From a virus: a DNA stretch of 64,000 nucleotides. Of the stretch, positions 7,276-61,037 are shown piece after piece; within the stretch, counting starts at the first letter, position 1, and each line of letters starts with the position of its first letter. Under the pieces are notes generated by a model. The model saw only the letters and a program-made list of their open reading frames with translations, was not told where the DNA came from and searched no databases. A program made the translations under genes and the position numbers. Location of the stretch: the IMG/VR virus record IMGVR_UViG_3300045431_000601, positions 42,371 through 106,370 of that record; one strand, 5' to 3'.

Positions 7276-7833
7276 ATGATATCTTTTTATAAGCCTAATA
7301 GCAAAAATACAGGCACAGCCTGTAGCTTCTCTGTAAATCCTAAAGATGGCTCTATATGGAGTTCTTTGATTAAGCAAAGCTCTTGGAATGAAGCCAAAAA
7401 AATAGGTTCTTTCTCAGAGAACCAGAATAATCCAAATAAAAGCGTTAAAATTAAATTTTCGCTTACTGAAGCCGCGGGTATACTAGACGCCTTAGAAAGG
7501 CAAGCAGAGTTTTCTGCTTATCATACTTCAGAGAAACAATCCACCCAGATTAAATTCTCTCCTTATGTTAAGGACGGCAAACACGTTGGATATTCTTATA
7601 TAGTAAATAAAACCGACAAACAAAATAGCGAAAACAAACAATCCTACTTGATAGGATTTTATTTTAATGAAGCCAGACTGATAAAAGAATTTATATCTTA
7701 TTCTTTAAATTCCGTATTTGAATCACAAAGAGTAGATACAATTAAAAAATTAAAAAATAAGCCGAAAGATCCGCGAGAAGAAGTTTCTGAACAAAAAAAT
7801 AGCGAGGACGATATAGACGGTGAATTGTGGTGA
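7276..7833 (+). CDS. Putative ssDNA-binding protein, Whirly/PC4-like
   Basis: SFYKP...A at N-terminus, KFSLTEAAGILDAL, acidic tail EDDIDGELW; directly after dnaE. Confidence 0.55.
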   Translation: MISFYKPNSKNTGTACSFSVNPKDGSIWSSLIKQSSWNEAKKIGSFSENQNNPNKSVKIKFSLTEAAGILDALERQAEFSAYHTSEKQSTQIKFSPYVKDGKHVGYSYIVNKTDKQNSENKQSYLIGFYFNEARLIKEFISYSLNSVFESQRVDTIKKLKNKPKDPREEVSEQKNSEDDIDGELW

Positions 7834-9737
7834 AGAAAAAGATTCTCTATCATTCAGATTTTTCTTTAAGCAAAACTGGCTTTGGAAAGACAGCAAGAAC
7901 AATATTAACTTATTTATATAACACTGGTAAATACGATATTGTTCACTATTCCTGCGGAGTTCCTAAAAATCACATCGAGCTCCAAAGAACCCCATGGAAA
8001 TCTGTCGGGACATTACCAGATGATTCACAAGTTTTAGAGAATTTACAGAAAGACCCCAACGCACTAAGAATGGCTAGTTATGGGTTTAATCATATAGATG
8101 AAATAATAAAAAATGAAAAACCAGATTTTTATATTGGGGTCCAAGATATATGGGGAGTAGATTATTCAATATCAAAGCCTTGGTTTAAAAAAATTAATTC
8201 TGTTATTTGGACCACTCTAGACTCCTTGCCTATTTTAGATTCTGCTATAAAATATGCTCCAAAAATTAAAAACTATTGGATCTGGAGCGATTTTGCTACA
8301 AAAGCCCTTAATGATATGGGACATAAACATGTTAAAACTATGCATGGCCCCGTAGACGTTTCAAATTTTTTTAGATTGTCAGATAAAAAAAGATCTGATT
8401 TAAGAGAAAGGTTTAATATCAATAAAAATAAATTTATAATTGGATTTGTATTTAGAAATCAATTAAGAAAAAGCGCTCCAAACCTAATTGAAGGATATGC
8501 TATATGGAAAAATAAAAATAATATAAAAAATAGCGCTCTACTTTTGCACACCCACTTTGGAGAGGGATGGAACATAATGAAACTGGCAAAAGAGTACAAT
8601 ATAGATAGTAAAGAAATATATACGACATATATTTGTAAAAAATGTAAAAATTATGAAGTAAAACCTTTCGAAGGAGAAGGTTTAGATTGTCCGTTTTGTA
8701 ATGAAAAGAAAAGTCAATTCACAACAAGCGTAAATCTTGGGGTATCTGAAAATCATTTAAACGAAATATACAATCTCATGGACGTGTACTGTCATCCTTT
8801 TACAAGCGGTGGGCAAGAAATTCCAATACAAGAAGCCAAGCTTACAGAATTAATTACTTTAGTTACAAACTATTCATGTGGAGAAGCCATGTGCGCACCA
8901 GAAGCATGCTCATTAACTTTAGATTGGTCAGAATACAGAGAACACGGAACAGAGTTTATTAAAGCTTCTACTAATCCGCAATCTATTGCACAACAATTAA
9001 AAGTTGTGTACGAAATGGATCTAAATAAGAAAAACGAAATGGGTGCAAAAGCGAGAGAGTGGACAATTAAAAATTATTCAGTTAAATCTATAGGAGAGAA
9101 AATAGAGTCATTTTTAGAATCAAATCCTAGAGTAGATTATAAGTTTGATTTTGAAGAAGAAAAGAAAGATCCATTTACTATCATTCCAGATATTGCAGAT
9201 GATAAAGAATGGTTAAAATATTTATACGCAAAGATCTTAAAAAGACCAGAAGTAGACGAAGACGATGATGGCCATAAATATTGGATAGAACAAATCTCAA
9301 AAGGAGTCAAGAGAGAAGCAATAGAAAAGTATTTTAGAGACGTTGCTTTTAAGGAAAACGAGTCTTTAGGCAAAAAATTTGAAGATTTACTTTTTGAACA
9401 TGACAAAGGAAAAAGAATATTATACGTAATGCCAGAAGACGCAAATAACGTTTTCCTGTCCAGTTCGATATTTGAATCAATTAAAAATACTTACACTGAT
9501 CATACTCTATATGTTGCAACCAAGAAAGAGTATACTTCTATACTAGACGGAAATCCATTCGTAGATAAAGTTTTACCATATATACCTCAAATGGATTCTT
9601 TACCTTGGCTAGAAGGAGCAGGTCATCATGAGGGCTATTTTGAGATAGCTTTTGTCCCGCATTTAAATTTAATTAATCAAAAAGATTTTATTCACAACGG
9701 CAAAACAAAAATAGAATATAATATATGCACATTATAG
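7827..9737 (+). CDS. GT-B (GT4-like) glycosyltransferase with Zn ribbon, DUF4214-like domain and GT9 N-terminal-like domain
   Basis: TGFGK, FRNQLRK, CKKC...CPFC, YNLMDVYCHPFTSGGQEIPIQEA, LYAKILKR...GHKYW, ILDGNPFVDKV. Confidence 0.85.
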   Translation: MVKKKILYHSDFSLSKTGFGKTARTILTYLYNTGKYDIVHYSCGVPKNHIELQRTPWKSVGTLPDDSQVLENLQKDPNALRMASYGFNHIDEIIKNEKPDFYIGVQDIWGVDYSISKPWFKKINSVIWTTLDSLPILDSAIKYAPKIKNYWIWSDFATKALNDMGHKHVKTMHGPVDVSNFFRLSDKKRSDLRERFNINKNKFIIGFVFRNQLRKSAPNLIEGYAIWKNKNNIKNSALLLHTHFGEGWNIMKLAKEYNIDSKEIYTTYICKKCKNYEVKPFEGEGLDCPFCNEKKSQFTTSVNLGVSENHLNEIYNLMDVYCHPFTSGGQEIPIQEAKLTELITLVTNYSCGEAMCAPEACSLTLDWSEYREHGTEFIKASTNPQSIAQQLKVVYEMDLNKKNEMGAKAREWTIKNYSVKSIGEKIESFLESNPRVDYKFDFEEEKKDPFTIIPDIADDKEWLKYLYAKILKRPEVDEDDDGHKYWIEQISKGVKREAIEKYFRDVAFKENESLGKKFEDLLFEHDKGKRILYVMPEDANNVFLSSSIFESIKNTYTDHTLYVATKKEYTSILDGNPFVDKVLPYIPQMDSLPWLEGAGHHEGYFEIAFVPHLNLINQKDFIHNGKTKIEYNICTL

Positions 9738-10864
9738 AAAAAATATCTACAAATACTGGTCTTAAAATAAAGAAGCCGTTTATATATGAGAAATTTTTTC
9801 CTTTAGACATTCAAAAATATATTATATTTAATCCTAAAAGCTCAGAGGACGTAAAAAATTATGATTATTGGGATAGAGTATTAGATATTTTAAATTTTTA
9901 TTTAAAAGAAAAGGATATAACTATCATACAGATTGGCGAGAAAAGAAGCGAAGACTATTCAGTAGGAGTAAACTTGACAGGAGCAACAGATCATAACACA
10001 AACGCCTACTTAATAAAAAATTCCTTGTTGTATCTAGGAACAGACGCGGTTGAGATGCAAGTTGCCTCTTCATTTAATATAAAAATATGCTCTTTAGTAA
10101 GTAATTATTACTTAGAAAATGTTAAGCCCTACTGGTCTAAATCAGAAGATACGAGAATGCTTCAACCAAAAACTAATATAAAACCAAACTTTAGTTCCCA
10201 AGAAGGAACCAAGAGGATTAATACAATTCTTCCTGAGGATATAGCTTATAACGCCCTTGATCTTTTAGGGATTACCCATGAGAAGACTATAAAGACTTTA
10301 TATATTGGTAAAAATTTCCATAATAAAACTTTTGAGATTATTCCTGATGGTAAAGTTAGCCTCAAAGATATACCGACAAATGTACCAATCGTGAGAATGG
10401 ATTATCATTTTAACGGGGTCGTGCTAGAGTATATCTTATCGCAAAAAAAAGCCATAATAATTACCAATAAAGAAATAGATATAGATTTATTAAAAAACTA
10501 TAAAACGAATATTCAAACCATCATATATGTAATTGAAGAAAAAAATGAGCCGCGCTTTGTGAGTCAAATGGAGAATTTAGGCATAGATTATTCTCTCGTA
10601 TCCTATTTAAAAGACATAAACCATTTAAAAATTAAATATATTGATTTTAAATTAATTAACCATATACAGCTTAACACAAAGTCTCCTTTTGAAAATGGAG
10701 ATAAAGATAATCTTTTCATATCTAATAGATTATTGTTATCGTCTAAAGGCATTTTTAATACAAAATATACATATTTAAAATTAAGTAATACCAATCAAGT
10801 TCCGGATGATCCTTTGTTTTGGGGAGAAGCAGATAATGTTTTTATTTACAAAAATAAAAAATAA
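9725..10864 (+). CDS. GT9 (heptosyltransferase-like) C-terminal domain protein
   Basis: KNYDYW, IIQIG, VNLTG, LIKNSLLYLGTD, ASSFNIKICSL. Confidence 0.7.
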   Translation: MHIIEKISTNTGLKIKKPFIYEKFFPLDIQKYIIFNPKSSEDVKNYDYWDRVLDILNFYLKEKDITIIQIGEKRSEDYSVGVNLTGATDHNTNAYLIKNSLLYLGTDAVEMQVASSFNIKICSLVSNYYLENVKPYWSKSEDTRMLQPKTNIKPNFSSQEGTKRINTILPEDIAYNALDLLGITHEKTIKTLYIGKNFHNKTFEIIPDGKVSLKDIPTNVPIVRMDYHFNGVVLEYILSQKKAIIITNKEIDIDLLKNYKTNIQTIIYVIEEKNEPRFVSQMENLGIDYSLVSYLKDINHLKIKYIDFKLINHIQLNTKSPFENGDKDNLFISNRLLLSSKGIFNTKYTYLKLSNTNQVPDDPLFWGEADNVFIYKNKK

Positions 10865-10873
10865 TGTTATTAT
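10845..10873 (+). promoter_or_regulatory. Putative sigma70-type promoter (extended -10)
   Basis: TTTACA-N17-TATTAT with TGn before the -10; ATG at 10883. Confidence 0.55.
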
Positions 10874-10882
10874 AAATAAACT

Positions 10883-11491
10883 ATGGAAAATTTTAATCAA
10901 ACATGGTGGGATAAAAATTTAGAATCTAGATTAAACGAATTTATCGGATGGGTAGGAGACGAAAATAGACATTCAAAAGTTTTTATTAGAAAATATGTAA
11001 TTTCAAAGGCTTATAAAAGTTTAGTTGACTTAGGCTGTGGTACTGCCTCAGAATTTTTTGGATACAAAAAAGATTATCCCGAATTAAAATATTTAGGCGT
11101 TGATAGCAGCTCTTTCTTAAACAAGAGAGGTATGGAATTAGGCGTGCCTATGCTGCGATCAAACATTGAAAACGTTAATCTTCTAGATAGTAGCTATGAA
11201 GTAGCTTTTTCTAGGCACGTTTTAGAGCATCAGCCTAGTTATAAAAACGGATTAAATGAATTAATTAGAATAGCCTCAAAAGAGGCTATTCATGTATTTT
11301 TTATTCCCCCACAAGAAGCACCAGAGCACATTGATTATAATGCAACAGAAAATCTTTATAATAATAGATATAATTTAAAAGATATAGAGAATTATATTAA
11401 AAATAATAAAAAAGTTAAATCTTTTGATTGGATTGATTGCTCTGCTAATGGATACAACCCAGAAGTAGCTTTATGCATAAAAGTTTTATGA
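10883..11491 (+). CDS. Class I SAM-dependent methyltransferase (small-molecule/sugar type)
   Basis: LVDLGCG, YLGVD, FSRHVLEH; no DPPY/NPPY or PC motif. Confidence 0.85.
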   Translation: MENFNQTWWDKNLESRLNEFIGWVGDENRHSKVFIRKYVISKAYKSLVDLGCGTASEFFGYKKDYPELKYLGVDSSSFLNKRGMELGVPMLRSNIENVNLLDSSYEVAFSRHVLEHQPSYKNGLNELIRIASKEAIHVFFIPPQEAPEHIDYNATENLYNNRYNLKDIENYIKNNKKVKSFDWIDCSANGYNPEVALCIKVL

Positions 11492-11520
11492 TTGACAGTC
11501 TTATAAGATTAATATAGAAT
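11492..11520 (+). promoter_or_regulatory. Sigma70-type promoter
   Basis: TTGACA-N17-TAGAAT; ATG at 11528. Confidence 0.8.
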
Positions 11521-11527
11521 ATAGAAT

Positions 11528-12310
11528 ATGGAAGAAAAAACAGAATCCACAGTAATTCAGCCTAATATAGAATTTTCTTACACAGGAGAAGTCCCTGTTG
11601 AAGAGCCTAGAGATAGGCCATTCAAAACAATAACAAGAAACAAATACGGCCTCGTGGAGGACGACTCTATCTCTTATATTTTTAACGAAGACAATTCAAT
11701 TAATTGGAGGGCTATGGTAAAAAGCCAATATCTTGTTCCGAATAGGCAAAAAACACAAGAGACAGATGTATCGAAGTTAGAAGATAAGGATTTGCTAATC
11801 CTTTTGGGAGGTATTAAAGAGCTAGCTCAGATTAGGGGATACACGGATGTATCTTATCATGTCGTAGCTGCCTCGGATAATTATTTTGCTACATCATGTA
11901 AAATAAAATGGATTCCAAATTACGAGACAGAAGGAAGATCAATAACTTTTGAAGCTTTGGCAGACGCTACCCCTAACAACACCAAAAATTTTGCTAGATT
12001 CTTTCTAGCTGCAATAGCAGAGAATAGAGCCTTTGTAAGATGCGTTAGAAATTTTCTAAAGATAAATATTGTTTCACAAGAAGAATTAGGGGACGCCAAA
12101 TTAATAGACGAAAGTCCTTCTCAACAGGAGAATATTATATCTCCTCATGTTCTCTTGGAAAAAGCAATGAGAGAAAAGGGCATATCCTTTGATCAATTAA
12201 AAAAGAAATTAATCAAAGAAAAATATGAGAACGCAGACTCTATAGAATCTATAAAAGATATTTCAAAAAATAAGATATTTGAACTAATAGAAAGAGTTAA
12301 GAAATCTTAA
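11528..12310 (+). CDS. Putative Rad52/Sak-like single-strand annealing protein
   Basis: TFEALADAT...AIAENRAFVRCVRNFLKI. Confidence 0.55.
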   Translation: MEEKTESTVIQPNIEFSYTGEVPVEEPRDRPFKTITRNKYGLVEDDSISYIFNEDNSINWRAMVKSQYLVPNRQKTQETDVSKLEDKDLLILLGGIKELAQIRGYTDVSYHVVAASDNYFATSCKIKWIPNYETEGRSITFEALADATPNNTKNFARFFLAAIAENRAFVRCVRNFLKINIVSQEELGDAKLIDESPSQQENIISPHVLLEKAMREKGISFDQLKKKLIKEKYENADSIESIKDISKNKIFELIERVKKS

Positions 12311-12312
12311 GG

Positions 12313-14112
12313 TTAGCCGCCGATAACCACACGACCTCCAATTCCTATTACGGTCCAAACACCAGGAACCTGTCCTGTAAAAGACATAATGTTCTCGTCT
12401 GATTTAATTCCTATTTGTCCTGGTCGCCCAGTTGAGCCTGTTGCGCCTTTTACGCCTTTTGAGGCCACTGATGAATTGGTTGTGCCTTTGCCTCCTTGTT
12501 GGCCGTTTTGACCTACGGCTCCAGGATCTCCTGATTGACCAGTCACGTTTGATGCATTAGCGCCTGCAGAACCTTTTGAACCAGGATCTCCGTTGGCTCC
12601 TTTGTCTCCTGGACCACCAGCTAAGCCAGTATCTCCTTGTATAATATCACCAGATGGTCCTTTAGAACCTCTATCTCCTGTTGCTCCTATCCCACCGCTA
12701 GGTCCTGAATCTCCGGCTAACTGTATAGTAGGTGTGTCTCCTGTAGGACCTTTGTCTCCAGGTACTGTTGGTCCGGTAGCGCCTTTTGCACCAATAATTG
12801 TTAAGCCCACATCGCCTGGTATTATTTGACCAGGATTTCCCTGACTTCCAGTAGCACCAATCGTTCCGACTTGACCTTTTGTAGATGCTGGTTTTAGACC
12901 AGGCGGACCTGAATCACCAGCGAGAGGAGAAGGCTTAACTCCTTGATCACCAGGGATAGGAGAAGGCTTAACTCCCTGATCACCAGGGATAGGAGAAGGC
13001 TTAACTCCTTGATCACCAGGGATAGGAGAAGGCTTAACTCCCGAGTCTCCTTTTATATTTTGACCATCATCGCCTGTGGCTCCAATAATCATAATAGATT
13101 CTACAGGTTTTACGCCTTTATCTCCTATTTCGCCAATTATAGGATCAGGTCTATCTCCTTCTGGGCCTTGGGAACCTTTTTCGCCTCCTATTATTAAACC
13201 TGGTTTGCCACCAAGTCCTTTTAAGCCTTTTAATCCTTCTTTTGGAGATCCTTGGTCACCTTTAGCGCCTGGAGAGCCAAATTCTCCAATAATTATGGCG
13301 CCAAATTCTCCTCTGTTTCCTCTATCCCCTTTGGCACCAAATACAAGTCCGTATCCCATTTCTCCTGTATCTCCTCCAGAACCAGAAGCACCAATTGATC
13401 CTACGCCTCCTCTTTCGCCGCTTCCTCCTCTAGAGCCTTTACCTCCTATTATAAATACCCCATCTGATCCTGCACTTCCTCCAGAACCAGAAGCACCAAT
13501 TGATCCTGCGCCTCCTCCTTCGCCGCTTCCTCCTCCTTTTCCTGATTTTCCGATACAACTAAGAGGGGGATTACATAAACCAGTAATTGGGAAGCTTTTG
13601 GTTGATAAAATCCAAGGAGGATCATTTGTACCGTCATCTATAGGTCTCATTTTAGCTTCTCCTGCTACAAAAGGAATATCAGAACTTAAAATGTTAATCT
13701 CTTGTGAATTGTTTTTTATATTTAATTGAGGATTATTTTTTTGTAGATAAACATAATTAGAAATTGTTCTATTTTCAGTATAAATTCCTTCTTTTGCAAA
13801 AATTGTTCTATATTTTTTTCCATAAGTACTAATAGAACCTGAGCTAATTGGAAAGCCATCTATTCTAAAAAGATAATCTTTGTTTTGAGATTCTATATAT
13901 AAATAGTTAACCTGTTGGTTTGTCCCAGGGATCATATCTTCCCCCGAACATCTTTTCTTTTTAATATTATTCCAATGTTTAGGTTTACATATGCCGTTTG
14001 TATCTCCAAAACCTAAATTTCCCCAAAAAATATTATCGCTCTTTCCTGAGGCGTATACCGACCATAAAGGTTCATCATAACTAATATCTTGGATAGGGTT
14101 ATAATTTTTCAT
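12313..14112 (-). CDS. Collagen-like fibre protein 1 (interrupted Gly-X-Y)
   Basis: ~390 aa of interrupted GXY after an N-terminal globular domain. Confidence 0.85.
12925..13041. repeat. 33-bp coding tandem repeat, ~3.5 copies ([11 protein letters not shown])
   Basis: aggagaaggcttaactccttgatcaccagggat repeated. Confidence 0.9.
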
Positions 14113-16037
14113 GCGGCGTAAGGAGGAGTAGCATAAACGATTCCATCTAAATCCCCAAGATATCTAGTACCAAGTAACATTCCGCTTTTTATTAAGTTTT
14201 TATCGCATGACTGTGAACCAAAAACTTCAAAAGAAATTCTTGGCCCAATAATAAAGGTTATATATTTTGCGTTATAAAAAGTTGTTGGAGAATCTCCGAA
14301 GTTAATGCTTACTATATCCCAAATACTTCCGTAGCCCATTCCGGTAGCACCTGTAGCTCCTGTAGCTCCTGTAGCCCCTGTAGCTCCTATACTGCCTGTA
14401 GCCCCAGTATCGCCCGTTGCGCCTCTTATTCCAGCGACGCCTTGCTGACCTTTATAAGAAGGTCCAACTATAGGACTGTTTCCAGACGGACCTGTTAATC
14501 CTCTATCTCCAGCAGGACCTTTTTGTCCTGTGGGACCTTTGATTCCAACGTTTCCAGTTGCGCCTTTTATTGAATTTCCTTTTGCTCCAGTATCTCCAAT
14601 TGGTCCTTTTTGTCCTGTGATTCCTCTTTCGCCAATAGGTCCTTTTATTGAGGCTCCAGAAGGACCTTTGTCTCCTGTCGCCCCTTTTACTCCTTTTATA
14701 CCTGTAGCTCCTTGAATCCCAGGCGAACCTGTCGCACCAGTAGAACCTTTTGGGCCAGTTGCTCCATTTATTCCTTGAACGCCTTTACCGCCAGTAGCGC
14801 CAGTACTCCCAATAGGTCCAAGAATTCCAGTGGCACCCGTAGATCCTATTGCGCCCTTTGCTCCAGGAACTCCAGTAGCTCCAGAAGCGCCCTTTGCTCC
14901 AGGAACTCCAGTAGCTCCAGAAGCGCCTTTTGCTCCAGGAACTCCAGTAGCTCCAGAAGCGCCTTTTGCTCCAGGAACTCCAGTAGCTCCAGAAGCGCCT
15001 TTTGGTCCCGTTGCTCCAGTTATGCCTTTGGCTCCGGTAGCGCCTGTAGCACCAGTAGAACCGGTAGAACCTTTGGGCCCTATACAAGTAGGAGGACAAG
15101 GACCTATAACTCCTTTTGGTCCAGTTTCCCCTTTTACTCCAGGAACGCCTGTAGAGCCAACTGGGCCAGTAGCCCCAGTTGAACCTGTTGCGCCTTCGCA
15201 ACCAGGAGGACAAGGGCCTGTTGCGCCTTTCGCTCCACCAGGACCAGATGCGCCTTTAGCACCAGGTGCGCCCGTCGCTCCAGTCGAACCAGTAAAGCCT
15301 TTTATTCCAGGAGCACCAGTTGCGCCCGTCGCTCCAGTCGAACCAGTAAAGCCTTTTATTCCAGGAGCACCAGGTGCGCCCGTCGCTCCAGTCGAACCAG
15401 TAGAGCCTATTGACCCAGGGATAGAAAGACCTGGAAGGCCATTAGCTCCATCTTCGCCTTTTATTCCAGGAGCACCAGTTGCACCCGTCGATCCAACGAC
15501 GCCCGTAACACCTGTGGCTCCTGGAACACAATCAGAGCATATTTTTTGCAATCGAAATGGTCGGGTAGTTAATACATAAGGAGGATTAACTGTCCCATCA
15601 TTTATCATATACATTCTTGCTTCAGGTGGGCTTGCCATTATCAGACTAGAGGTAGTAATAGATATAACATTACGACTTGTTATACTTTTTATATATGCCA
15701 TAGAAAGCATATCAGAAGAAAGAAAATACAATAAATTTTTTGTATATTCACTAAATTGAAGAAGGGCGTAAGAATTTGTATTCCCTAAAAAGATATTCCT
15801 ATATTGATTAGCATGAGCAGAAAATGAAATCCAATCGCTTGCATTATAAAAAGAAGCAGTTATTTTATCTGGGCTAGGATAATAGATATAATTTACATTA
15901 TAAAATCTGTCAGTCACATTTTCGTCATCTAAAGGATGAAGAGAATTTATACCAATCTGGAGAGCTTTATAAGCTTTATAATATTTAGCCCAAGATACAG
16001 AATATAGCTCTTGATTTATGGGAAATGTATTTTGCAT
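14109..16037 (-). CDS. Collagen-like fibre protein 2
   Basis: Long GXY tract rich in GAT/GST/GPK; PCPPxC interruptions. Confidence 0.9.
14851..15004. repeat. 36-bp coding tandem repeat, ~4.3 copies ([12 protein letters not shown])
   Basis: gcgcc(c/t)tttgctccaggaactccagtagctccagaa repeated. Confidence 0.9.
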
Positions 16038-16039: not shown

Positions 16040-17632
16040 TTAAACCTCAATGCTTTTTTGTTCATAAGACGATAATGTATTAGATAAGTTTGAACCAGAA
16101 ACAATTAATTTAACGTTAATTTTATTTAAATCAAAATATTTTTTATAATATACATCAATATAAACATTTTTTACATTTTTGTCTAGTTGAATAGAATGCG
16201 AGTATGTATTATTATTAAAATTTAAATAACTTTTATTTTTAAAATCAACAAAATTTGTGCTATTTGTGCCTGTAGCTAAATTAAAAGCATCAAAAAAGTT
16301 TTTATTGTATGTTATGGATTGATTAGAATATCCTGTTATTATCTTTTCTACAAAAACAGAAGCCATACCCGAACCTGTAACAGTTGTAATAAATCCAGTA
16401 ACATTAATTCCGTCAATAATACCAGTGACAACATTATTATAATCAATTAGTCCTTGCTGCGCATAACCATTAATTGTTGTATTTAGATTTTTAAATACAA
16501 TCGCTCCATTTTCCATACCAGAAGCTTGGACGTTTACATCCTGATTAGTTAAATACTGATTTAAGTAGACAAACTCTTCTAGGTTATCGTTAATAATTCC
16601 TGTGACTGTGTTGTTCGAAAGAAAATTATACCCTGTTCCGCTAACGGAAACATTTTTAGATATATATCCAGAGCCATAAATATTGCCAGATAATTCTTCT
16701 CTCAATCCCGTAGACAATATAATATTAGCAGAAAAATTACCCGTATCTCCAGAGATATATTTTAAATTGACAGATAAGATTTTGTCTAAAGGCTCTTCTT
16801 GGGTATTATTTCTAGAAACAAGATCAGCACTAATAACGTACCTTTCTAATCCACTAGCACCAATTTCAATTTCGCTTAAATTACTCTGATAAGTAGACAC
16901 GTCGAATGTTTTAAAAAATTCTGAATTAGTTTTTGTTCCTGTAATAAAAAAATCTTTATTTATTAAACCAAAATTAGTATTTAGATTTAATTTAATAGGA
17001 TAAACTTCAGAATTGTTATATGTGTTTTCAAGATTTACTAAAGGAGCGAATTGTATATTGTAATTATTTTGGTCTTTATTTATATCTAATATTTTAAAAA
17101 TATTACTATAGTTAAAACTAGAATTAGATATTGATCCAGAAAAAATTTCTATATTTTTATGATCTATGTCTATAAAATTTCCAGTTATTTGCTGTGAGCT
17201 TAAATCAAATGTATTTTGTATATCCAGACTATAGCTAGGTAATTCTCCGTATATTTTTAAAGAACTTAAATTAAAATTTACATCTGAATTTATATAATAA
17301 TTATTATAAGGTCTATAAAAATTAGCCGGAGCCGCGTAAATTAAATTCTTTGTTTCAATTGGAGTGCCATTAATATAACAAGAGAAAGCTTTGTCCTTAA
17401 AAACTCCAGATAAATATATATCTTCCCCAAGATTTAAGCTGTAAATATGCTTATTTTTAAAATATAATCTATTTTTTTTTACATTAAATTCTATCTTTTC
17501 ATATGTAATATTTTTTAAATTTGATAGTCCAAAAAAAGAATTAATTGGATAAGATTCAATATTAAATTTTTTTACAAAAAAGAAATTTGTTTGATCAGGA
17601 AAACTAAAACTTTTATTTCCACTTATAATCAT
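16040..17632 (-). CDS. Putative tail/baseplate protein
   Basis: 530 aa, beta-rich, N/S/T-rich, in tail module. Confidence 0.6.
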
Positions 17633-20017: not shown

Positions 20018-20023
20018 TTACAC
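20018..20023 (-). promoter_or_regulatory. Putative late promoter core GTGTAA
   Basis: 21 nt upstream of ATG 19996; also forms the Val-stop of the upstream gene. Confidence 0.65.
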
Positions 20024-21748
20024 TATATCTACGGGTATGTTTCTTATCTGATTTTCTAAATAAGGTAATAATTTAAAATTATTAATGTTATTAAAATCAG
20101 AAGTATATTGATAGTCTACACCTTCTTTCTGAAGGACTCCATTAATCCATATTAATTCTAAGCCATTAACTTCTTCTTCTTGTAGAGAATCTGTATTAAT
20201 TTTATTATTAATTAGATCAAGGGGCATTGACAAAGCGCTTACAGTCTCATCAGACCTTATTAATAATTGACCAATTATACCATTTGGATAACTTGAAAAT
20301 ATTAAGCTAATAACCTGTGCGTTTAAATTTTGTGTTATCATATAATCTATATTTTTATCTATTTTTTTTCCATTTAAATATAAATTACATTCATTTAGAT
20401 CTACATCATTTGTAACAAGAGGTGGATTAAAATAATAGATTCCGTCTTCTTTTTTTTCTACTTGTCCTTCGTAGTAAAAATATGATCCAGAATTAGATAA
20501 CGTATAAACAACACTGTCTTGATCGTCTAAGGTATAATTTTTAATTGTAAAACCATGTCCGCCAAGATCATAGTTAGTTTTTGGAAGAAGTAATCCGTTT
20601 AAATAAACATGAATATTCATACTATCATTTAAATCTTGATGGGCTTCACAATAATTGCTATTAATAAATACAGGGACATATATTTTTTTAGAGAAATTAA
20701 AAGTATTAATGTTTATGTAGTTATTGCCTGGAAGAGGTTTTTCTAAATAGATATTTTTATTAGAATAAGTATTAAGCAAAGTTTGATTATATAAGTTTTT
20801 TATTGAAGTAATTTCTTCAAATGTAGATACATCTTCTTGATTTAGGTACTCTATCGCTTCTCCGTATAAATGTCCCGTAACTCCAGAGGTTACGAAAGCA
20901 TTAATTTTTGAATCATAAACATTAACGTATCCTGTTATACCTGTGCCAACAATAGCGTTTGGGTTGACGATTGCATTTGAAAACATTTTTTTTGACATCT
21001 GTACTTGGACTTTTCGTTCAATTTCTCCTGTTTTAAATAATAATAAATTTAATTCTTTTGCAAAAGATTCAGATGTAATGTAATCAATATTATATATATT
21101 TTTAATATTACCATAAAATCCCGTATAAGAATTTCTTAAACCAGTTAGATTTCCATAATAAATCTTTTTATCTTTGCCAAATAAAGACGTATTTGCTCTA
21201 ATTGATTTAGACTCGTATGTATAATCTTTATTTGGATCAAATAAATTTATTTTTAAAGTATTGGGAGAAAAAAATATATTTAAAATATTATTATTCTTTA
21301 AAACTGAAGAAAAAGTTTCTGTTCTGAACGATTCTTCTCCGGAATATTCGATATATAATTTATGATGGTCATTAACGCCAAGAACTACATCATATTTATT
21401 AGGTTCAAATATATGAGATAAAACTCTAGACTGATTTGAAATTAGTTGAGGAAAATATTCAAAGTCTAATATTATTAATCCTACATCGTTATTTGCGCTA
21501 GAGGTATACCCAAAGAGTGCGGATCCGCTAGTAAAATTATTAGCAATACTATAAAATTTTCCAGGATTATAATTTAAATCAACAGTTAAATTATTATTTA
21601 TATTCTGAAATTGGTTAGCTCCGGAAAAAGCTTGGTTATATATAAAATCACTTAAATTAAGATTTGAATTAAAATTATAAGCCGCCCTTAAAGCGTCTTC
21701 GGAAAGTTGCATATTTTTAAGAGCAGTTTTTATGTAGTTTGCACTCAT
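20018..21748 (-). CDS. Putative tail protein
   Basis: Repeated YLNG/WING beta motifs; tail module. Confidence 0.6.
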   Translation of the reverse strand: MSANYIKTALKNMQLSEDALRAAYNFNSNLNLSDFIYNQAFSGANQFQNINNNLTVDLNYNPGKFYSIANNFTSGSALFGYTSSANNDVGLIILDFEYFPQLISNQSRVLSHIFEPNKYDVVLGVNDHHKLYIEYSGEESFRTETFSSVLKNNNILNIFFSPNTLKINLFDPNKDYTYESKSIRANTSLFGKDKKIYYGNLTGLRNSYTGFYGNIKNIYNIDYITSESFAKELNLLLFKTGEIERKVQVQMSKKMFSNAIVNPNAIVGTGITGYVNVYDSKINAFVTSGVTGHLYGEAIEYLNQEDVSTFEEITSIKNLYNQTLLNTYSNKNIYLEKPLPGNNYININTFNFSKKIYVPVFINSNYCEAHQDLNDSMNIHVYLNGLLLPKTNYDLGGHGFTIKNYTLDDQDSVVYTLSNSGSYFYYEGQVEKKEDGIYYFNPPLVTNDVDLNECNLYLNGKKIDKNIDYMITQNLNAQVISLIFSSYPNGIIGQLLIRSDETVSALSMPLDLINNKINTDSLQEEEVNGLELIWINGVLQKEGVDYQYTSDFNNINNFKLLPYLENQIRNIPVDIV

Positions 21749-52719: not shown

Positions 52720-55700
52720 TTATTCAGTTGTTGTAATTCTATAAAAGTTAGAGACATATGGAGCATATTCTGAATAAAAATTAAAATCTTGATTTATATT
52801 GCAAGCTACTATTGTTGGTGTAGGTGTTGGTGTAGGTGTTGGTGTAGGTGTTGGTGGAGAGTGACTAACTGGAGCCGAAATATATGCAGACAACTTAGGC
52901 CATGGCGGCTCCTGGTCTCGTTTCCAAGTATACGTTTTAATAACTTCGTTAATTTTTCTAATTTCTGCATATCCAGGCGAGCTATTATACGGATCAGTAA
53001 AATTAACTTCAAACGTGCCACCAGGTATTACTTCGTAAGTATATATTTTTAATATTCCTCCTGAAAAAAATTCAGGACTTTTAGTTGGAAAAATAACTGG
53101 AAAATTTGATAAATTTAATAATGGATCTCCGTATCTTACATAAAAACCTTGTTGAAGATTAGACATTAAAAAAGTTATTTCGGTTTTTGAAGGAATAGTA
53201 GACGTTGGAGTAGACGTTGGAGTAGACGTTGGAGTAGACGTTGGAGTAGACGTTGGAGTAGACGTTGGAGTAGGCGTTGGAGTAGGCGTTGGCGGCAGAA
53301 TAAATTTATAATCAAATTTTGTATTTAAAATTTTATTTCCATTATCTAATTTCCATCTTGCATCTTCCCATGGATTAGTTACATATCCAATAGGCGAATA
53401 AGATTCTAGTATTGAATTGTCTGCTGTAGATATTTTTTTAAGCTGCCATCCAAAAGTTAAATTTTTAATAAAAAATACTTTTTCTTGAAGATTTGTTTGA
53501 TTAGTTTTTTTAATAAAAACCTTAGAGTTGTCTCCCTGAATGGGCGACCAATCATAAAAGTAATCACCTGTTAGGCTGACTTCGTCTGGACTATGGGTAG
53601 TCGCTATGCTGTTAATATATATCGTTTTATAAAAAGACTCTTCAGGTGCTACTGCGGGCGGAATAACAAGATTTGATTTAAATTTAATATCTATAAACTT
53701 ATTCGAGGGGAGTTTAGATTTATAGATTTTAAATAATTTTAGACTAATTTTATCTAAAATAGTGATTGCCGCTTCTTTTGTTTCGCTTAGATAATACTGA
53801 TTTTCTGGCATGTTAACTAGGATTTTACAGATACCTGTATTTTTTAATAGAATTCTTTGAGAATCAAGGATCTCTACTTTATCTGATGGGGTAAAGCTTA
53901 TGCTTGAGAGGGCGACCTCTTCTTTTGAGTTAAGGTTTATTAAATCTTTTAAATAAATAATTGAACCTTTTTTCCAAGCAGGATTTATTACAAAATTTAT
54001 ATTTCTTGCTTTTTTAACAAAAGACAGATTCTCTCTCACATTAACGGGCGAATAATCCGCATTACCTTCTTGTTCTGCAATTAAAGATACATTTCCTGGT
54101 TTAAGAATTGTATATTTATTTTCAATAATTCTTAGGATTTGTTCATTTGAGCTAGAGTACTTAATTAATAGTCCTGGTAAAAATTGCCCAGTCGTAGAAT
54201 CTCGATCTACTTGAGTGTTTTTAGATAAGACTCCTTCAAAAGGATATGAGTTAAACTCTAAAACTTTAGTTTTAAATTCTGGGATAGTTTGTTTCTTAAA
54301 GTTTTGTACAACAGGTATAACTAATTTTGCCTCTTGAAAATTTTCTGTCTCTGGAGAATTAATAATTATATAATAATTATTAGACTTTTTAGCTGACACA
54401 TTACCGAAATTATCTATAGATGCTACGTTTAGATTAGAGACAGCAAAAGTATAATTTGTCTTCTCTAGATTTAAAGAGAATTCGGTTGCTCCAAAATCCA
54501 CCCTTTTAAATGTCTCTTCTGTTAGATTTAAAAATATTTGAGGAGCAATATTCCTTATAAGAAATCCAGGGATCTTAAATGAATTTACGACTGTGTAATA
54601 GTTATTTTTAATAGGAGCATTTTTTGGATTAAGATTTTGGACGATTTGCGTGCCTAATCCTAATTGATTTAATATGACACTAAACCTTTGAGAAAAAATA
54701 TTTAATTTTTTATATCTTGCGCCAGAAGCATCTTCACAGAGCCATGGATAGCAAGAAAGAGAATTATTCTTGTTAGAATAAGACCAAATATCTTCTATAT
54801 TTTCATAATTATTCGTTACAAAATTATAACAAACATCGCTGCAATTAGAACCCGTATTGACATAGGGTACAACCCCATATCTAGGTGTTCCGTCTTCTTC
54901 TAAAAGGATTGAATTCACAAAAGGGATAACAGAAGACCCATTTTTTCTATCAAAAATATTAAATTTACTTAAATTATTTTTAATAATCGTGCTGTATATT
55001 TCAGATTTGTAATTAATTTTTCTTGGGTTGGGGAATACAGTTAATATAAATTTAATATTATTAAAGTTAATTTCTGCTATTCCTGAGCTCCTAAAATTTA
55101 ACCTCGTAACTTTTTTTGGAGCATAAATGTTCCAATTCGTCTTTAATTGTAAATTTGGGGTTTTCTCGGGAAACGAAATAAAAGCATCATAAGAATAAAT
55201 CGGAGTCTTCTGATCATTGTATTTCTCCAAAGGAGTGCGATTTGATAGGGCTTGCTCTAATTCTTTAGGGTAAGATAAAATATGTCTTGGTCCATTTTTA
55301 TTAAAAAGTCTTATATTTTTTATATAAGAAGTTTCTGAACCGTCAATTTCTGTAGATTTTAAATTATTTGTTTCTATTACAATTGGGCTCATCTCTGGTA
55401 AATCTGCAGAATACAAATAACCAACATAAATTTTATCATCGATAGATGTTATTGCTATAGGCTTATAAACTGGAGAAAATAAAGAAGATGGATATTTTGC
55501 TGAAGCTTTTAGCATTAAAACTCCTATAGAATTTATTTTTAAATAATATTTATTATCTATAACTAAAACCTCTCCAATCGAAGGATGACTAGAAGTTAAA
55601 TCTATTTCAGATTGGCTTATATTTTTTAAAGTAATATCTAATAAAATTTTTTGATCAAGAGAATTATTTTTTAAGATTGAGGTCGGGACCTTATCAAAAA

Positions 55701-58047
55701 GCACTTTTTGATCTAGGAAATCAAATTTTTCTAAATAAAGAGTTAAAGAGCTTTCTGCAGGATCATATTTAAAATTTCCAGGATGAGAAGCTTTAATTGT
55801 AATCGGTCCAGAAAAGAACGGATCAATGGCTTTGATAAAATTACCCGTTATTTGTACAGCAGGAGAATCTGAGGTATAAGCTATATCCATCCTTAAAGAA
55901 GGATCTATAGAAGCGTCTTGCGTAGCATCTGAAGTAGCTTTTAGTTCTAAAGGAATATTATATACAAGCGGATCTTTTGGCAACATAAAATTAATTGTTT
56001 GTGAATATTTTTTGACAAAAAATGTATATACGGTTTCTTTAGCGTAAAATCTGGCGGTTTCTTCTTGACGAACAATTAACACGTATTCTCCTGCAGCCTG
56101 AGATATTAATGAAAAACGGTTATTGTCAATTTTCATTAACATTAATTGTGGATGTGGGTCCGTTACCGATATGCCTCCATCAGAATCAGAATTAATAATT
56201 AAAACCTTTCTTTCTTTTATGAATATAGGATCGGGCAAAGACATTAAAAGATTCGGAGTCTTTTTCAAGATTAATAAATTTATTGTTAATTCTGAATATT
56301 CATATTTTTCGTCTTCTTTACAGAATATTTTTAAAGAATTCCAACCTGGCTTCAAGGGTTTTGCGAAAAATATGTCTTTATTATTAATTTTTTTTGTATA
56401 CACTTCAAAGCTTTCATTTGATATAGCCTGTATTTCTGCGTCAGAATAAATTTTTGGAATACCATAAAGCTTTGGGGGATAAGAGCAAGGGTGCCCAGGA
56501 ATACATTCGGGAGTATTTGCGTCTACTAGAAGTGGATCATTTAAAGAAAATTCTTCTTCTAGAATGACCGTCGGAATATTTGGCAAATGCTGAAAAATGT
56601 TTTTGGCCTTACTAATTCTAAAAGACTGAATCGCTTCTTCGTCAATTGCATAAAAACTATCTCCTAAAGAATACGCTTTAATTTTTGCTATCCCAGCTTT
56701 AAGAATCTTGACTTTATTCCCTATTATAGATATTATGTCTGGCGTTAAACTTACAAAATTAATAGGAAAATTATTCGGCGTAGACGCTTCAATTAAAAAT
56801 TCAGTATCTATAGCGTAAGTTTTGTCTTCTATAATTTTAAAATTTATTGGCTGATAAGTAGATAATCCATATACATCTACTTGTCCTGATTCTTGCCTTT
56901 TACAGGTTCTTCCGCAAACATTGCTATTCAAGCAAGTTTCATCCCATAAATTAATTTTTTTAATAAAATTTGATTTCCCAGGAAAATCATAACCATTTAG
57001 ATCTTGAGCAGAACAAATATGGTAGCTACTCCCGCACATAAAAATACAACGACTTTTAACTTCTATATTAGATATAAACCTTGTATATTTTGCATGTGGA
57101 AAAAATTTATCACAATTCCCGCATGTCGGAGGCCAGCATCCAAAATATTCTCGAACTCTAGCAACACTATTTAAATCTATTTGGTCAAGCCTTGCCGCCG
57201 CTACATAGACTGGTTTGCTCATAATCCCCTCTGCGTCATCCTCATAGTACCCAGGACCATTAATGGTGCAACAATTACAACCTTGTGGAGCGCCATACGC
57301 AGACATTCGCCTTGAAACTTTTGATCTAAATGCCCAAGTCTGAGTCGCTGGAGCAATTTCAAAACTTTGAATAACTTTTTGGTTGCTTAATTTTACTTCT
57401 CCGCTAGCTACTGGTAACCTAGGGACATAACAATCTGAACCCTTATAACAGGAATAGTTTCCATAAATTTGCCCATATTGGTCCGATTGTGGAAATGACG
57501 CAGGAATAGGGCAGCGACCATAAATACCAGGCGTCCATCCTCCAGGACATATTCCTCTACTTGGTATTCTTTGACTTATTCTTAAAATTTTTACTGATCC
57601 ATTTTCTAGAATTTCTTCTGTGTAGGCTATTAGATTAAATTTTCCTTCTTTTAAGATGTTTAATTTGTTGCCAACAATCGTCGCTAAATTTTCGTTAGAA
57701 ACTTTATATTTTATTGGAATAGTTGTTTCTCCAGATATTTCTTCTGAATTTTGACAATACATTCCTCCAGGGTGAAACGAACTAGGAATACAGTCGTATT
57801 TTCCAATAATTTTATAAGAACTAAATTGCGGAAGATTAATTGAGTCTCCAACTTTTAAAGAGCTTATCTGCGGCAATTGAATGAAATGATCGGTAGCCGA
57901 GCCATCAGCTATAATAGGAGTCGATGTAGGTGTTGAAACTAGACGAGGAAAGCTTGGATTTGGTATAGACGACAAGCTGGACTCAGAATTGATATTCTGA
58001 AGAATGTCTAATACACTATTAATTGTTGACCTAAGAACATCTTGCAT
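52720..58047 (-). CDS. Very large Ig-like repeat protein with Cys-rich insertions and PT linkers
   Basis: 1775 aa; Q(P/T)INF...GNKxxIxxxG...Y repeats; (PTST)n and (PT)n tracts. Confidence 0.85.
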   Translation of the reverse strand: MQDVLRSTINSVLDILQNINSESSLSSIPNPSFPRLVSTPTSTPIIADGSATDHFIQLPQISSLKVGDSINLPQFSSYKIIGKYDCIPSSFHPGGMYCQNSEEISGETTIPIKYKVSNENLATIVGNKLNILKEGKFNLIAYTEEILENGSVKILRISQRIPSRGICPGGWTPGIYGRCPIPASFPQSDQYGQIYGNYSCYKGSDCYVPRLPVASGEVKLSNQKVIQSFEIAPATQTWAFRSKVSRRMSAYGAPQGCNCCTINGPGYYEDDAEGIMSKPVYVAAARLDQIDLNSVARVREYFGCWPPTCGNCDKFFPHAKYTRFISNIEVKSRCIFMCGSSYHICSAQDLNGYDFPGKSNFIKKINLWDETCLNSNVCGRTCKRQESGQVDVYGLSTYQPINFKIIEDKTYAIDTEFLIEASTPNNFPINFVSLTPDIISIIGNKVKILKAGIAKIKAYSLGDSFYAIDEEAIQSFRISKAKNIFQHLPNIPTVILEEEFSLNDPLLVDANTPECIPGHPCSYPPKLYGIPKIYSDAEIQAISNESFEVYTKKINNKDIFFAKPLKPGWNSLKIFCKEDEKYEYSELTINLLILKKTPNLLMSLPDPIFIKERKVLIINSDSDGGISVTDPHPQLMLMKIDNNRFSLISQAAGEYVLIVRQEETARFYAKETVYTFFVKKYSQTINFMLPKDPLVYNIPLELKATSDATQDASIDPSLRMDIAYTSDSPAVQITGNFIKAIDPFFSGPITIKASHPGNFKYDPAESSLTLYLEKFDFLDQKVLFDKVPTSILKNNSLDQKILLDITLKNISQSEIDLTSSHPSIGEVLVIDNKYYLKINSIGVLMLKASAKYPSSLFSPVYKPIAITSIDDKIYVGYLYSADLPEMSPIVIETNNLKSTEIDGSETSYIKNIRLFNKNGPRHILSYPKELEQALSNRTPLEKYNDQKTPIYSYDAFISFPEKTPNLQLKTNWNIYAPKKVTRLNFRSSGIAEINFNNIKFILTVFPNPRKINYKSEIYSTIIKNNLSKFNIFDRKNGSSVIPFVNSILLEEDGTPRYGVVPYVNTGSNCSDVCYNFVTNNYENIEDIWSYSNKNNSLSCYPWLCEDASGARYKKLNIFSQRFSVILNQLGLGTQIVQNLNPKNAPIKNNYYTVVNSFKIPGFLIRNIAPQIFLNLTEETFKRVDFGATEFSLNLEKTNYTFAVSNLNVASIDNFGNVSAKKSNNYYIIINSPETENFQEAKLVIPVVQNFKKQTIPEFKTKVLEFNSYPFEGVLSKNTQVDRDSTTGQFLPGLLIKYSSSNEQILRIIENKYTILKPGNVSLIAEQEGNADYSPVNVRENLSFVKKARNINFVINPAWKKGSIIYLKDLINLNSKEEVALSSISFTPSDKVEILDSQRILLKNTGICKILVNMPENQYYLSETKEAAITILDKISLKLFKIYKSKLPSNKFIDIKFKSNLVIPPAVAPEESFYKTIYINSIATTHSPDEVSLTGDYFYDWSPIQGDNSKVFIKKTNQTNLQEKVFFIKNLTFGWQLKKISTADNSILESYSPIGYVTNPWEDARWKLDNGNKILNTKFDYKFILPPTPTPTPTPTSTPTSTPTSTPTSTPTSTPTSTIPSKTEITFLMSNLQQGFYVRYGDPLLNLSNFPVIFPTKSPEFFSGGILKIYTYEVIPGGTFEVNFTDPYNSSPGYAEIRKINEVIKTYTWKRDQEPPWPKLSAYISAPVSHSPPTPTPTPTPTPTPTIVACNINQDFNFYSEYAPYVSNFYRITTTE
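52813..52855. repeat. 12-bp coding repeat encoding (PT)n
   Basis: tgttggtgtagg x~3.5. Confidence 0.9.
53197..53292. repeat. 12-bp coding repeat x8 encoding PTPT/PTST linker
   Basis: agtagacgttgg x6 plus agtaggcgttgg x2. Confidence 0.9.
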
Positions 58048-58076: not shown

Positions 58077-58880
58077 TTAATAATATGGAACTTTCTTTGG
58101 TAATCCACCTACATTTATCTCTATATATCCTGCTGGGGCATTGGGTAAACTTGCTGAGGGATAGGTCAGTCCCACAAAATTAAACTTCTGAAATATTCCC
58201 GTTCCATTGATTACAGATATATTCCCTCCATCGATCTCTAATGCGTGAGTAGCTATTTTATTCTTATCTCCTAAAAATATTTTAGCATCTTGAAGACACA
58301 TATTCGTCCCTGATCCTCCCACAAATTCAAGATTTTTAATTGATAAGGAATCTACGTCAAAAGCTCCACTGACGGATATATTTCCAGAAACATATAGATT
58401 GTCTCTTATATTTACTTCTCCAAAAATATCCACAAATTTTGTGGGTTTTGCATAAGATCCAGTAAAAACAGAAAGCTTGGCTTGTTCGACTCCGACGCCA
58501 ACTCCTCGATCTAGAGCTCCTAATCTATGGCCAAAAAACATTTTTAACGATATAGGCTGATTAGTCTCTGTAGTATTTAAAAAATACAAATCATTTCCAC
58601 TTGGATTTGAATATATGCCAAACACCGTATTCTCGCCATGAATAGCGAAATTATTTAAATATTTTGCTCTAAATGTCTCTGAAATAGATTTTCCATCTAA
58701 ACTATATTGATATAATCTAAAATCATTCTTAACTTTTAGGTCTAATCTGTCTAAGGTTAGCGATTGTCTATCTTTGTGTTCTCCAGACGTAAAAGCCGTG
58801 ATCTTTAATTGCGGCTCGTTGCCTCTGTAGTTTGCAGAGATTAAACTAATATCTTTTTCTGGTATAAAAGCGCTCATCAT
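58077..58880 (-). CDS. Hypothetical fibre-like protein
   Basis: NLYVSGNISVSG shaft-like repeat; C-terminal PAGYIEINVGG...KVPYY. Confidence 0.6.
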   Translation of the reverse strand: MMSAFIPEKDISLISANYRGNEPQLKITAFTSGEHKDRQSLTLDRLDLKVKNDFRLYQYSLDGKSISETFRAKYLNNFAIHGENTVFGIYSNPSGNDLYFLNTTETNQPISLKMFFGHRLGALDRGVGVGVEQAKLSVFTGSYAKPTKFVDIFGEVNIRDNLYVSGNISVSGAFDVDSLSIKNLEFVGGSGTNMCLQDAKIFLGDKNKIATHALEIDGGNISVINGTGIFQKFNFVGLTYPSASLPNAPAGYIEINVGGLPKKVPYY

Positions 58881-60138: not shown

Positions 60139-60155
60139 AATATGTAATACTTAAA

Positions 60156-60161
60156 TTACAC
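60156..60161 (-). promoter_or_regulatory. Putative late promoter core GTGTAA
   Basis: 17 nt upstream of ATG 60138; forms the Val-stop of the upstream gene. Confidence 0.65.
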
Positions 60162-61037
60162 TAAAAAAAGATCCCGATTTATAGATAAATCATATGGATT
60201 TAAAGATAACCTTCTATTTATATTATCTACAATCTCCGGATTCCCTTTCAAGCCTAATAGATGCGTGTATTTGTAATTTTTAGCCCCTTCGTAGTCATCT
60301 GTCCCTTTTAGCAAGGTATGAATTGTTTTCTTATTAATGTGAGCATATACGCCTAAAGTAAATTGCTCATAAATAACGGCTAAAATAGTATTAAAATCAC
60401 ATTCTGCAAAATCATAATTATTAAGTTTATTCTTATTAACTTTCCAAAAACTGTAATAATTTTTATTGTTAATAATATCTATAGAATATCTTACATATTC
60501 TTTAAAAAATTCTAAATCATATCCGCCTATTATTCCAACATTATAAGCAAAGGTTTGGCTTCTTGGTAACTCTATAAAAGCTTTCCATTCCTTTGGAATT
60601 TGATCAGAATTTAAATCACTTAAATAGTCTACTCTATATGCAGGATAAAATTTCAAATTTTTATCTTGACTATTTGGATAGGAAAAATGCTCCTTATTTT
60701 GAACGAAAATGCCTTTACTAGTTAAATCTTCTGGAAGTTTTTCCCATAAAAAAACATCAGAATCTATGTGCAAAAAAGGTTCATTTTGATGAGCTATAAA
60801 ATCATATGCTAAAAGCTTCCCTATTGACCATATGTGATCTTGATCCTCTCTAATTCTTAAAATAGGAAAAATTTTTTTAAACGGTAATTTCCCTAATAAT
60901 TTTAAATAAAATTTATCACAAATTAAATAGACATTATAATAATTTTTATTTGCTAACGCTAAAGAGAGCTTCCAGAAAATTAATTCATCTTTATTAGGAT
61001 TTCTGTTAGACTTATAAGCGGTCATATACACTTGCAT
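60156..61037 (-). CDS. DxD-motif GT-A-like protein (DUF6734-like)
   Basis: WSIGKL, PFLHIDSDVFLW, YNVGIIGG, YEQ, YTHLLG. Confidence 0.6.
   Translation of the reverse strand: MQVYMTAYKSNRNPNKDELIFWKLSLALANKNYYNVYLICDKFYLKLLGKLPFKKIFPILRIREDQDHIWSIGKLLAYDFIAHQNEPFLHIDSDVFLWEKLPEDLTSKGIFVQNKEHFSYPNSQDKNLKFYPAYRVDYLSDLNSDQIPKEWKAFIELPRSQTFAYNVGIIGGYDLEFFKEYVRYSIDIINNKNYYSFWKVNKNKLNNYDFAECDFNTILAVIYEQFTLGVYAHINKKTIHTLLKGTDDYEGAKNYKYTHLLGLKGNPEIVDNINRRLSLNPYDLSINRDLFLV

Follow-up and report, generated by a model that had tools for sequence, protein, structure and literature searches.

Glycosyltransferases (GTs) of phage origin are thought to decorate virion proteins (capsid, tail tube) in the Che8-type mycobacteriophages, which carry two GT genes; to our knowledge no dipeptide sequon has been described for them. 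Large cyanophages and giant viruses encode Gmd, a fucose-synthase-like enzyme and many GTs. In the cyanophages such genes are usually taken to remodel the surface of the host, and the giant viruses are eukaryotic and have different acceptor rules. We have analysed a 64,000-nucleotide stretch of a tailed phage genome, hereafter the window (IMG/VR record IMGVR_UViG_3300045431_000601), which encodes several GTs and in which certain tail and fibre proteins carry a large excess of Gly residues preceded by Ser or Thr ([S/T]-G).

Two bacterial systems are close parallels. TibC, which is related to family GT9 and encoded next to its substrate, heptosylates Ser-313 in an NSGG stretch of TibA, and AAH/TibC attach many sugars to Ser within the short loops that separate beta strands, one of these sites being Ser-Gly-Gly (PMC4358343). 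SgtA places N-acetylglucosamine on Thr or Ser of the GPT collagen triplets of BclA3, and its gene lies next to bclA3 (PMC7157674). TibC and SgtA are two precedents for cytoplasmic GTs that modify a Ser or Thr followed by Gly.

The [S/T]-G pattern of the phage is real and unusual, and represents either sugar-attachment sites or a structural building block. The reading that we favour, and to which we give an even chance, is that it is mainly a clade-specific structural unit. The window corresponds to bases 42371-106370 of a 106,370-bp viral record (31% G+C, about 70% complete according to CheckV). The source is a fragment of about 106 kb from an uncultured, AT-rich, DnaE-encoding tailed phage, and the window is its late half.

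The dipeptide excess and its distribution

For each protein, the number of Gly residues preceded by Ser or Thr was compared with that expected from composition (observed/expected ratio, O/E) and evaluated with a shuffle z and a binomial p. All 95 open reading frames (ORFs) scored from the 106-kb genome were subject to Bonferroni correction. The highest value among single non-collagen proteins of the window is that of a 530-amino-acid (aa) distal tail protein (16040-17632), where 22 of 33 Gly follow Ser or Thr and 5.5 are expected (O/E 3.97, z 8.2, p 2.5e-10). In DnaE (4671-7244) the figure is 7 of 38. Both counts agree exactly with those made by hand in the preliminary description of this DNA.

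Only five ORFs pass the correction. These are the 530-aa protein, a 377-aa fibre-like protein (37668-38801), the product of genome positions 21109-23211 (outside the window) and two collagens composed of G-X-T triplets (14109-16037 and genome 28911-32534, the latter also outside the window). The comparison of structural with replication genes that the preliminary description had proposed thus leaves, after composition correction, an excess in three or four non-collagen proteins. Several further proteins had been named as carriers. In a 576-aa tail protein (20018-21748) the excess is nominal, while two orthologues are strongly enriched (L004:5647-7740 and L006:5302-7722; O/E 3.3, p 2e-9 and 2e-10, respectively). 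It is weak in a 536-aa tail protein (21745-23355) and is not significant in a 267-aa protein (58077-58880).

Nor is the motif pervasive in structural proteins, as had been suggested. The tape measure and proteins of 1775, 1292, 921 and 785 aa show no enrichment (O/E 0.6-1.2), and the family of the 785-aa tail protein (17639-19996) is depleted: its O/E is 0.59 and those of its orthologues L004:7773-9998 and L006:7755-9998 are 0.42 and 0.12, giving 10 observed and 26.3 expected dipeptides when the three are pooled (p 2.6e-4).

A scan of all dipeptides places TG first and SG second in the 530-aa protein, SG at the top in the 377-aa protein and TG at the top in the 576-aa protein; in the 536-aa protein neither is among the top six. 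The motif is directional, Gly being followed by Ser or Thr in just 8 of 33 cases in the 530-aa protein. Since TCN, AGY and ACN codons all occur before Gly in this gene, the signal resides in the protein and not in a DNA word.

The 377-aa protein begins with a short collagen-like stretch (GPAGPQGPKGDP) and matches PHROG 17312 ('tail protein') at its C-terminus; a search of five related records yielded no homologue. A 72-bp DNA repeat (63791-64000) does encode, as reported earlier, a 24-aa unit containing NTG, ISG and ATG. The fibre gene carrying these units runs past the end of the contig, so that both gene and genome are incomplete at this point.

For the collagens, the bias noted previously is present but is a by-product of their triplets. 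In the 14109-16037 fibre, 59 of 60 [S/T]-G dipeptides fall inside G-X-Y runs because Thr (52 of 125 triplets) and Ser (11) fill about half of the Y positions. The second collagen-like protein of the window (12313-14112) is not of this Thr-rich type, and its orthologues are depleted in [S/T]-G (O/E 0.49-0.54). The genome encodes three collagen fibres in all.

As controls we scored proteins of 200 aa or more from T4, T5, lambda and Chryseobacterium phage MA9V-3, 118 in all, among them the fibres gp34-37, gp12, Wac, pb1 and J. Their O/E has a median of 1.17, the share of Gly after Ser or Thr nowhere exceeds 39%, and none of the 118 reaches p<1e-3. These statistics, like the conservation, gene content and synteny given below, are direct observations.

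Conservation and setting of the sites

An exhaustive HMMER search identified 20 homologues of the 530-aa protein at about 30% identity. All 20 are enriched (48-81% of Gly after Ser or Thr, O/E 2.7-4.5, p 1e-8 to 1e-29). At 14 of the 22 sites both the Ser/Thr and the Gly are kept in at least 80% of the aligned homologues, and most of these show Ser as well as Thr. Conservation of Gly equals or exceeds that of Ser/Thr at every site and is far higher at five (for example, at sites 294 and 403 Gly is present in 18-20 of the 20 sequences and Ser/Thr in only 4-8), as would be expected if Gly geometry were the primary constraint.

The flanks are weakly hydrophobic on both sides (0.45-0.55 compared with a background of 0.36), at positions -3 to -1 and +2 to +3 (1082 and 277 sites), and otherwise unconstrained. 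The analogy that had been drawn with the animal proteoglycan attachment motif fails on this point: the flanks are hydrophobic, not acidic. Site spacing is irregular. The triple beta-spiral fibre shafts of adenovirus and reovirus are trimeric, with a regular repeat of about 15 residues in which Gly or Pro occupies a turn.

An AlphaFold2 (AF2) model of the 530-aa protein, calculated as a monomer from a 21-sequence alignment, is all-beta with a predicted local distance difference test (pLDDT) score of 75; a single-sequence run gave 31. In the model, residues 1-130 resemble jelly rolls of the galectin/ConA type (Z about 10), which suggests that this N-terminal domain may itself bind carbohydrate. 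Residues 260-445 form a meander of long strands. The hairpin turns are occupied by the glycines of NG, QG, DG and YG, and those of [S/T]-G are mostly located 2-5 residues inside strands. Foldseek comparison of the model with PDB and BFVD produced only non-specific beta-sandwich matches (template modelling (TM) score 0.1-0.2). For residues 235-530, the matches listed by fold searches with the monomer model were likewise all generic beta-sandwiches.

Some of the homologues (P0003-P0014 and L035:11979-17453) are long proteins of 900-1800 aa which carry FG-GAP_2 beta-propeller repeats. Comparison of the profiles of the 530-aa and 576-aa families gives a probability of 0.3%, and only an N-terminal domain is common to some members. 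Homology between the two families as the sole cause of the bias was rejected on these grounds. Since domains are nevertheless shared by some members, their enrichment need not be independent.

Distribution in related viruses

Related viruses were represented by 34 viral loci with homologues of the GT9-like protein (L024-L057), several of which are near-duplicates. Sixteen of the 34 contain proteins with p<1e-4, and in 14 of these the proteins include non-collagens. In a complete 203-kb relative (G008), five or six large proteins are moderately enriched (O/E 1.9-2.6), and most of these are encoded close to the GT block. Two records that are about half complete have, respectively, one weakly enriched protein (G005) and none strongly enriched (G007). 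Gmd and collagens also occur in relatives G001 and G003. Every relative recovered carries the GT block and none is without it, so that co-occurrence of the GT genes and the bias cannot discriminate between explanations.

No relatives of the key proteins (the 530-aa tail protein and the GT9-like protein) were found among GenBank phages, and no prophage relatives in GTDB genomes. A search for related loci using single queries (the 530-aa protein, P0005 and the GT9-like protein) returned none. Most of the structural proteins have no Pfam or PHROG family match.

Gene content and the glycosyltransferase block

The features of the window are listed in Table 1. The late genes are on the minus strand and, downstream from the tape measure, comprise six tail genes and two collagen-like genes. 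This series ends head-to-head with the GT genes. The presence of GT genes, as previously described, is borne out by PHROG 2170 for the GT4-like protein and by the PF01075 annotation of the Atlas neighbours of the GT9-like protein, and these genes adjoin the fibre genes.

Table 1. Features of the window (positions are those of the window)
Feature	Position	Strand	Remarks
Replication operon: RecA-like, DnaB, ThyX, primase, PD-(D/E)XK nuclease, PHP, exonuclease, DnaE		+	Left end of the window
Genes after DnaE, in order: 185-aa protein, GT4-like/DUF4214, GT9-like, S-adenosylmethionine (SAM) methyltransferase, 260-aa protein		+	
GT-B-type (GT4-like) protein, 636 aa	7827-9737	+	DUF4214 segment and C-terminal extension; PHROG 2170 glycosyltransferase (E 1e-11)
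GT9-like (heptosyltransferase-like) GT-B protein, 379 aa	9725-10864	+	Assigned from Atlas neighbours; conserved across the clade
Class I SAM methyltransferase, 202 aa	10883-11491	+	Pfam Methyltransf_11 (E 3e-7); PHROG 22502
260-aa protein	11528-12310	+	No family match; always follows the GT9-like gene; occurs in 32 of the 34 related loci; unnamed viral clusters as Atlas neighbours
Second collagen-like protein	12313-14112	-	Not of Thr-rich type; PF01391 (E 1e-7); 77 triplets; weak excess
Collagen-like fibre, rich in G-A-T/G-S-T	14109-16037	-	Pfam Collagen, PF01391 (E 5e-51); 125 triplets
Distal tail protein, 530 aa	16040-17632	-	N-terminal lectin-like jelly roll and all-beta body (model); strongest [S/T]-G carrier
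Tail protein family, 785 aa	17639-19996	-	[S/T]-G-poor; flanked by two enriched genes
Tail protein, 576 aa	20018-21748	-	Moderate excess, 11/33 Gly; nominal p 3e-3
Tail protein, 536 aa	21745-23355	-	Weak (nominal) enrichment, 10/33; p 0.03
Tape measure	25037-31612	-	Pfam PhageMin_Tail (E 8e-31); anchors the tail module; O/E 0.77, not enriched
Fibre-like protein, 377 aa	37668-38801	-	Between head and tail genes; 14/26 Gly after Ser/Thr; p 1.7e-4
267-aa protein	58077-58880	-	Enrichment not significant, 7/27; p 0.06
DUF6734 protein, 293 aa	60156-61037	-	Pfam DUF6734 (E 3e-33); D-S-D (DxD-like) motif, HIDSDVF
Fibre gene, incomplete at contig end	63165-63998	-	Three 24-aa repeats with NTG, ISG, ATG

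The GT4-like protein also matches Pfam Glycos_transf_1 with 19.8 bits, below the cut-off of 26.4, and DUF4214 is likewise below its cut-off. The GT9-like protein has no Pfam or NCBIfam match. The Atlas clusters closest to it (score 0.98, TM 0.95) are of viral origin, and 14-68% of their members carry PF01075. No Cys is invariant in an alignment of three orthologues, and there is thus no four-Cys iron finger. Its homologues in the 34 viral loci have 31-44% identity, and in about 30 of the 34 related viral contigs the order DnaE, 185-aa protein, GT4-like, GT9-like, 260-aa protein (4671-12310 in the window) is collinear. Because the block has remained collinear despite this divergence, the two GT-B enzymes are core genes of the replication-side operon of the clade; they might act on protein, on DNA or on the envelope of the host. 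In the window, 1.4-5 kb separate the GT9-like gene from the collagen genes and the [S/T]-G-rich tail genes, and in 14 related loci it directly abuts genes for enriched non-collagen proteins.

A methylated glycan had been envisaged from the methyltransferase gene. The gene is present, but it is absent from all 34 related loci and is therefore a recent insertion and an accessory gene of this genome only; a methylated glycan is accordingly not a feature of the clade. From its DxD-like motif, the DUF6734 protein is possibly a GT-A-type enzyme.

Outside the window are two GT25 genes, a GT32-like DXD protein, a GT2, two GT4 proteins, Gmd and an Fcl-like enzyme; these form clusters next to a 1207-aa G-X-T collagen and next to Cys-rich repeat proteins. 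The genome as a whole has at least nine GT-like genes in addition to Gmd and the Fcl-like gene, and because of this gene content the phage very probably builds a glycan containing a 6-deoxyhexose. DNA glycosylation by the GT pair lacks support: ThyX is present and no ThyA-type hydroxymethylase occurs in the 106 kb of this roughly 70% complete record.

Several other features were noted. The 1775-aa structural protein (52720-58047) includes Pro-Thr and Pro-Thr-Ser-Thr linkers (residues 1585-1617 and 1730-1745) encoded by 12-bp tandem repeats (52813-52856 and 53197-53292). Linkers of the Pro-Thr type are classical O-glycosylation sites in other systems. A 234-aa protein (61050-61754) matches the pesticin/phage-lysozyme C-terminal domain (E 4e-9) and is probably an endolysin or tail lysin. 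A 7-bp unit, TAACTTT, is repeated 4.3 times at 34162-34191, just upstream of the 34182-35225 gene and overlapping its first 10 bases.

Interpretation of the motif

A structural role for the motif, like any glycosylation of the virion, is something that we infer. The excess is limited to a small number of distal tail or fibre proteins of all-beta type, in which a Ser/Thr hydroxyl and a conformationally free Gly would lie between two hydrophobic beta segments. The resulting strand-kink-strand unit would be repeated many times in the [S/T]-G-rich proteins, and in the collagen-like fibres the same dipeptide arises simply from Gly-X-Thr triplets. Our preference for a structural unit, an evenly balanced judgement as stated above, rests on the restricted distribution (five of 95 ORFs, with large structural proteins unenriched and one tail family depleted), on the conservation of site positions across 20 homologues at about 30% identity, where Gly is kept as well as or better than Ser/Thr, and on the hydrophobic flanks and in-strand setting in the AF2 model. 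It also rests on the location of the GT block, which forms the end of the replication operon and is present in all 34 loci, even in records without strong enrichment (G007 and G005), on the domains common to some members of the 530-aa and 576-aa families, and on the origin of the collagen dipeptides in G-X-Y runs.

A number of observations weigh against a purely structural explanation. A structural motif should recur in other phage fibres, and none of the 118 control proteins shows it. The FG-GAP blades fused to the phage homologues have a hairpin that reads T-G, unlike that of bacterial FG-GAP_2 proteins, three of which are not enriched (O/E 0.84-1.16). The enriched non-collagen proteins of the clade belong to several families that are not linked by BLAST. 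Within the sites of the 20 homologues Ser and Thr exchange freely and other residues are rare. Finally, the neighbouring tail protein family (17639-19996) avoids the dipeptide. All five points hint that the motif is subject to some factor specific to the clade. The AF2 model, moreover, is that of a monomer and the protein is probably an oligomer, so that the model may misrepresent the setting of the sites.

One such factor would be glycosylation of the motif itself, which we regard as a tentative and rather doubtful proposal. The [S/T]-G dipeptides would then be acceptor sites, and the GT9-like/GT4-like pair would hyperglycosylate the distal tail adhesins of the clade at dozens of strand-[S/T]-Gly-strand sites while these proteins are still unassembled in the cytoplasm. 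A strand-loop-strand context would be recognised, as it is by bacterial autotransporter heptosyltransferases (BAHTs) on beta-helical adhesins; further GTs would elongate the glycan, and the Thr of the G-X-T collagens would form a second class of acceptor. Such a proposal accounts for an enrichment that is clade-specific, involves 50-80% of Gly with p down to 1e-29 in several unlinked tail families, and is absent from the control proteins. It also accommodates the retention of a hydroxyl through Ser/Thr exchange and the depletion of the adjacent tail family. In the 14 loci with non-collagen enriched proteins the conserved GT9-like gene lies directly against the tail-fibre module, TibC and SgtA offer precedents for modification of Ser/Thr before Gly by enzymes encoded beside their substrates, and in the AF2 model the motif Gly is not that of the hairpin turns (NG, QG, DG).

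Against this, the GT block is universal in the clade and part of a replication-side operon, so that its adjacency to the tail genes may reflect genome architecture alone. The GT9-like protein has neither the iron-finger cysteines of the BAHTs nor a Pfam match, and BAHTs modify Ser only whereas Thr is equally common in the phage motif. The hydrophobic flanks and in-strand positions suggest partial burial, and at several sites Gly is better conserved than Ser/Thr. Moreover, the bare dipeptide is not specific, and an additional recognition element must be assumed.

Some other clade-specific pressure is improbable. It might be a modification of another kind, recognition by a chaperone of tail assembly, or selection against the deamidation-prone Asn-Gly and Asp-Gly in the long-lived virion proteins of an Asn-rich proteome. 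The clade- and protein-specific nature of the bias fits such a pressure, and in the 530-aa protein Asn constitutes 14.5% of residues and precedes only 3 Gly where 4.8 are expected. This deficit is, however, small; NG, QG and DG are retained at hairpin turns, and neither an enzyme nor a chaperone emerged as a candidate. An artefact of chance, of composition or at the DNA level is scarcely credible: although the 267-aa and 536-aa proteins are within noise, it is refuted for the 530-aa protein and its family by the shuffle z, the binomial p and the enrichment of all 20 homologues, while the diversity of codons at the sites rules out a DNA word and TG and SG top all dipeptides in that protein.

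Whether the virion is glycosylated at all is a separate matter from the existence of a sequon. GT genes flank both the collagens of the window and the upstream 1207-aa G-X-T collagen, and the best-supported protein targets of the phage glycan are the Thr-rich collagen fibres beside each GT cluster. We consider the chances of some form of virion glycosylation, most plausibly on these collagens, to be about equal either way.

If the motif does mark sugar attachment, the glycan coats of phage receptor-binding proteins could be read from sequence, with a bearing on host recognition, virion stability and evasion of immunity or defence. This would provide a viral counterpart of autotransporter heptosylation and the first case in which the acceptor motif of a glycosylated phage tail can be recognised, a motif avoided by neighbouring tail proteins. 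A GT9-like family that occurs in hundreds of viral genomes would also gain a function. Should the motif be structural, it provides a distinctive hallmark by which an unstudied family of all-beta tail proteins can be searched for. In either case, with its GT-like genes, Gmd, Fcl-like enzyme and three collagen fibres, this is a phage with an unusual investment in sugars.

Comparison with described systems

Animal proteoglycan Ser-Gly xylosylation requires acidic flanks, and provides a poor parallel for a motif that is flanked by hydrophobic residues and uses Thr equally. The Che8-type mycobacteriophages differ from the present phage in both clade and host.

As in the AAH/TibC systems (AIDA-I and TibA), a GT gene of the phage, in this case GT9-like, adjoins genes for all-beta, adhesin-like proteins. 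The four-Cys iron finger of the BAHTs is missing from the phage protein, whose sequence does not identify it as one of them. The BAHTs modify secreted beta-helices and only at Ser; in the phage, the candidate substrates are tail proteins and Thr is used about as often as Ser.

The collagen fibres resemble those of Clostridioides difficile BclA3/SgtA and of Bacillus BclA in having Thr at the Y position, before Gly, and an adjacent GT gene. They differ in belonging to a phage tail module, in the type of adjacent GT (GT4-like, GT9-like, GT25, GT32-like and GT2) and in that we only infer their glycosylation. Finally, in its combination of Gmd, an Fcl-like enzyme and many GTs, the phage resembles the large cyanophages and giant viruses.

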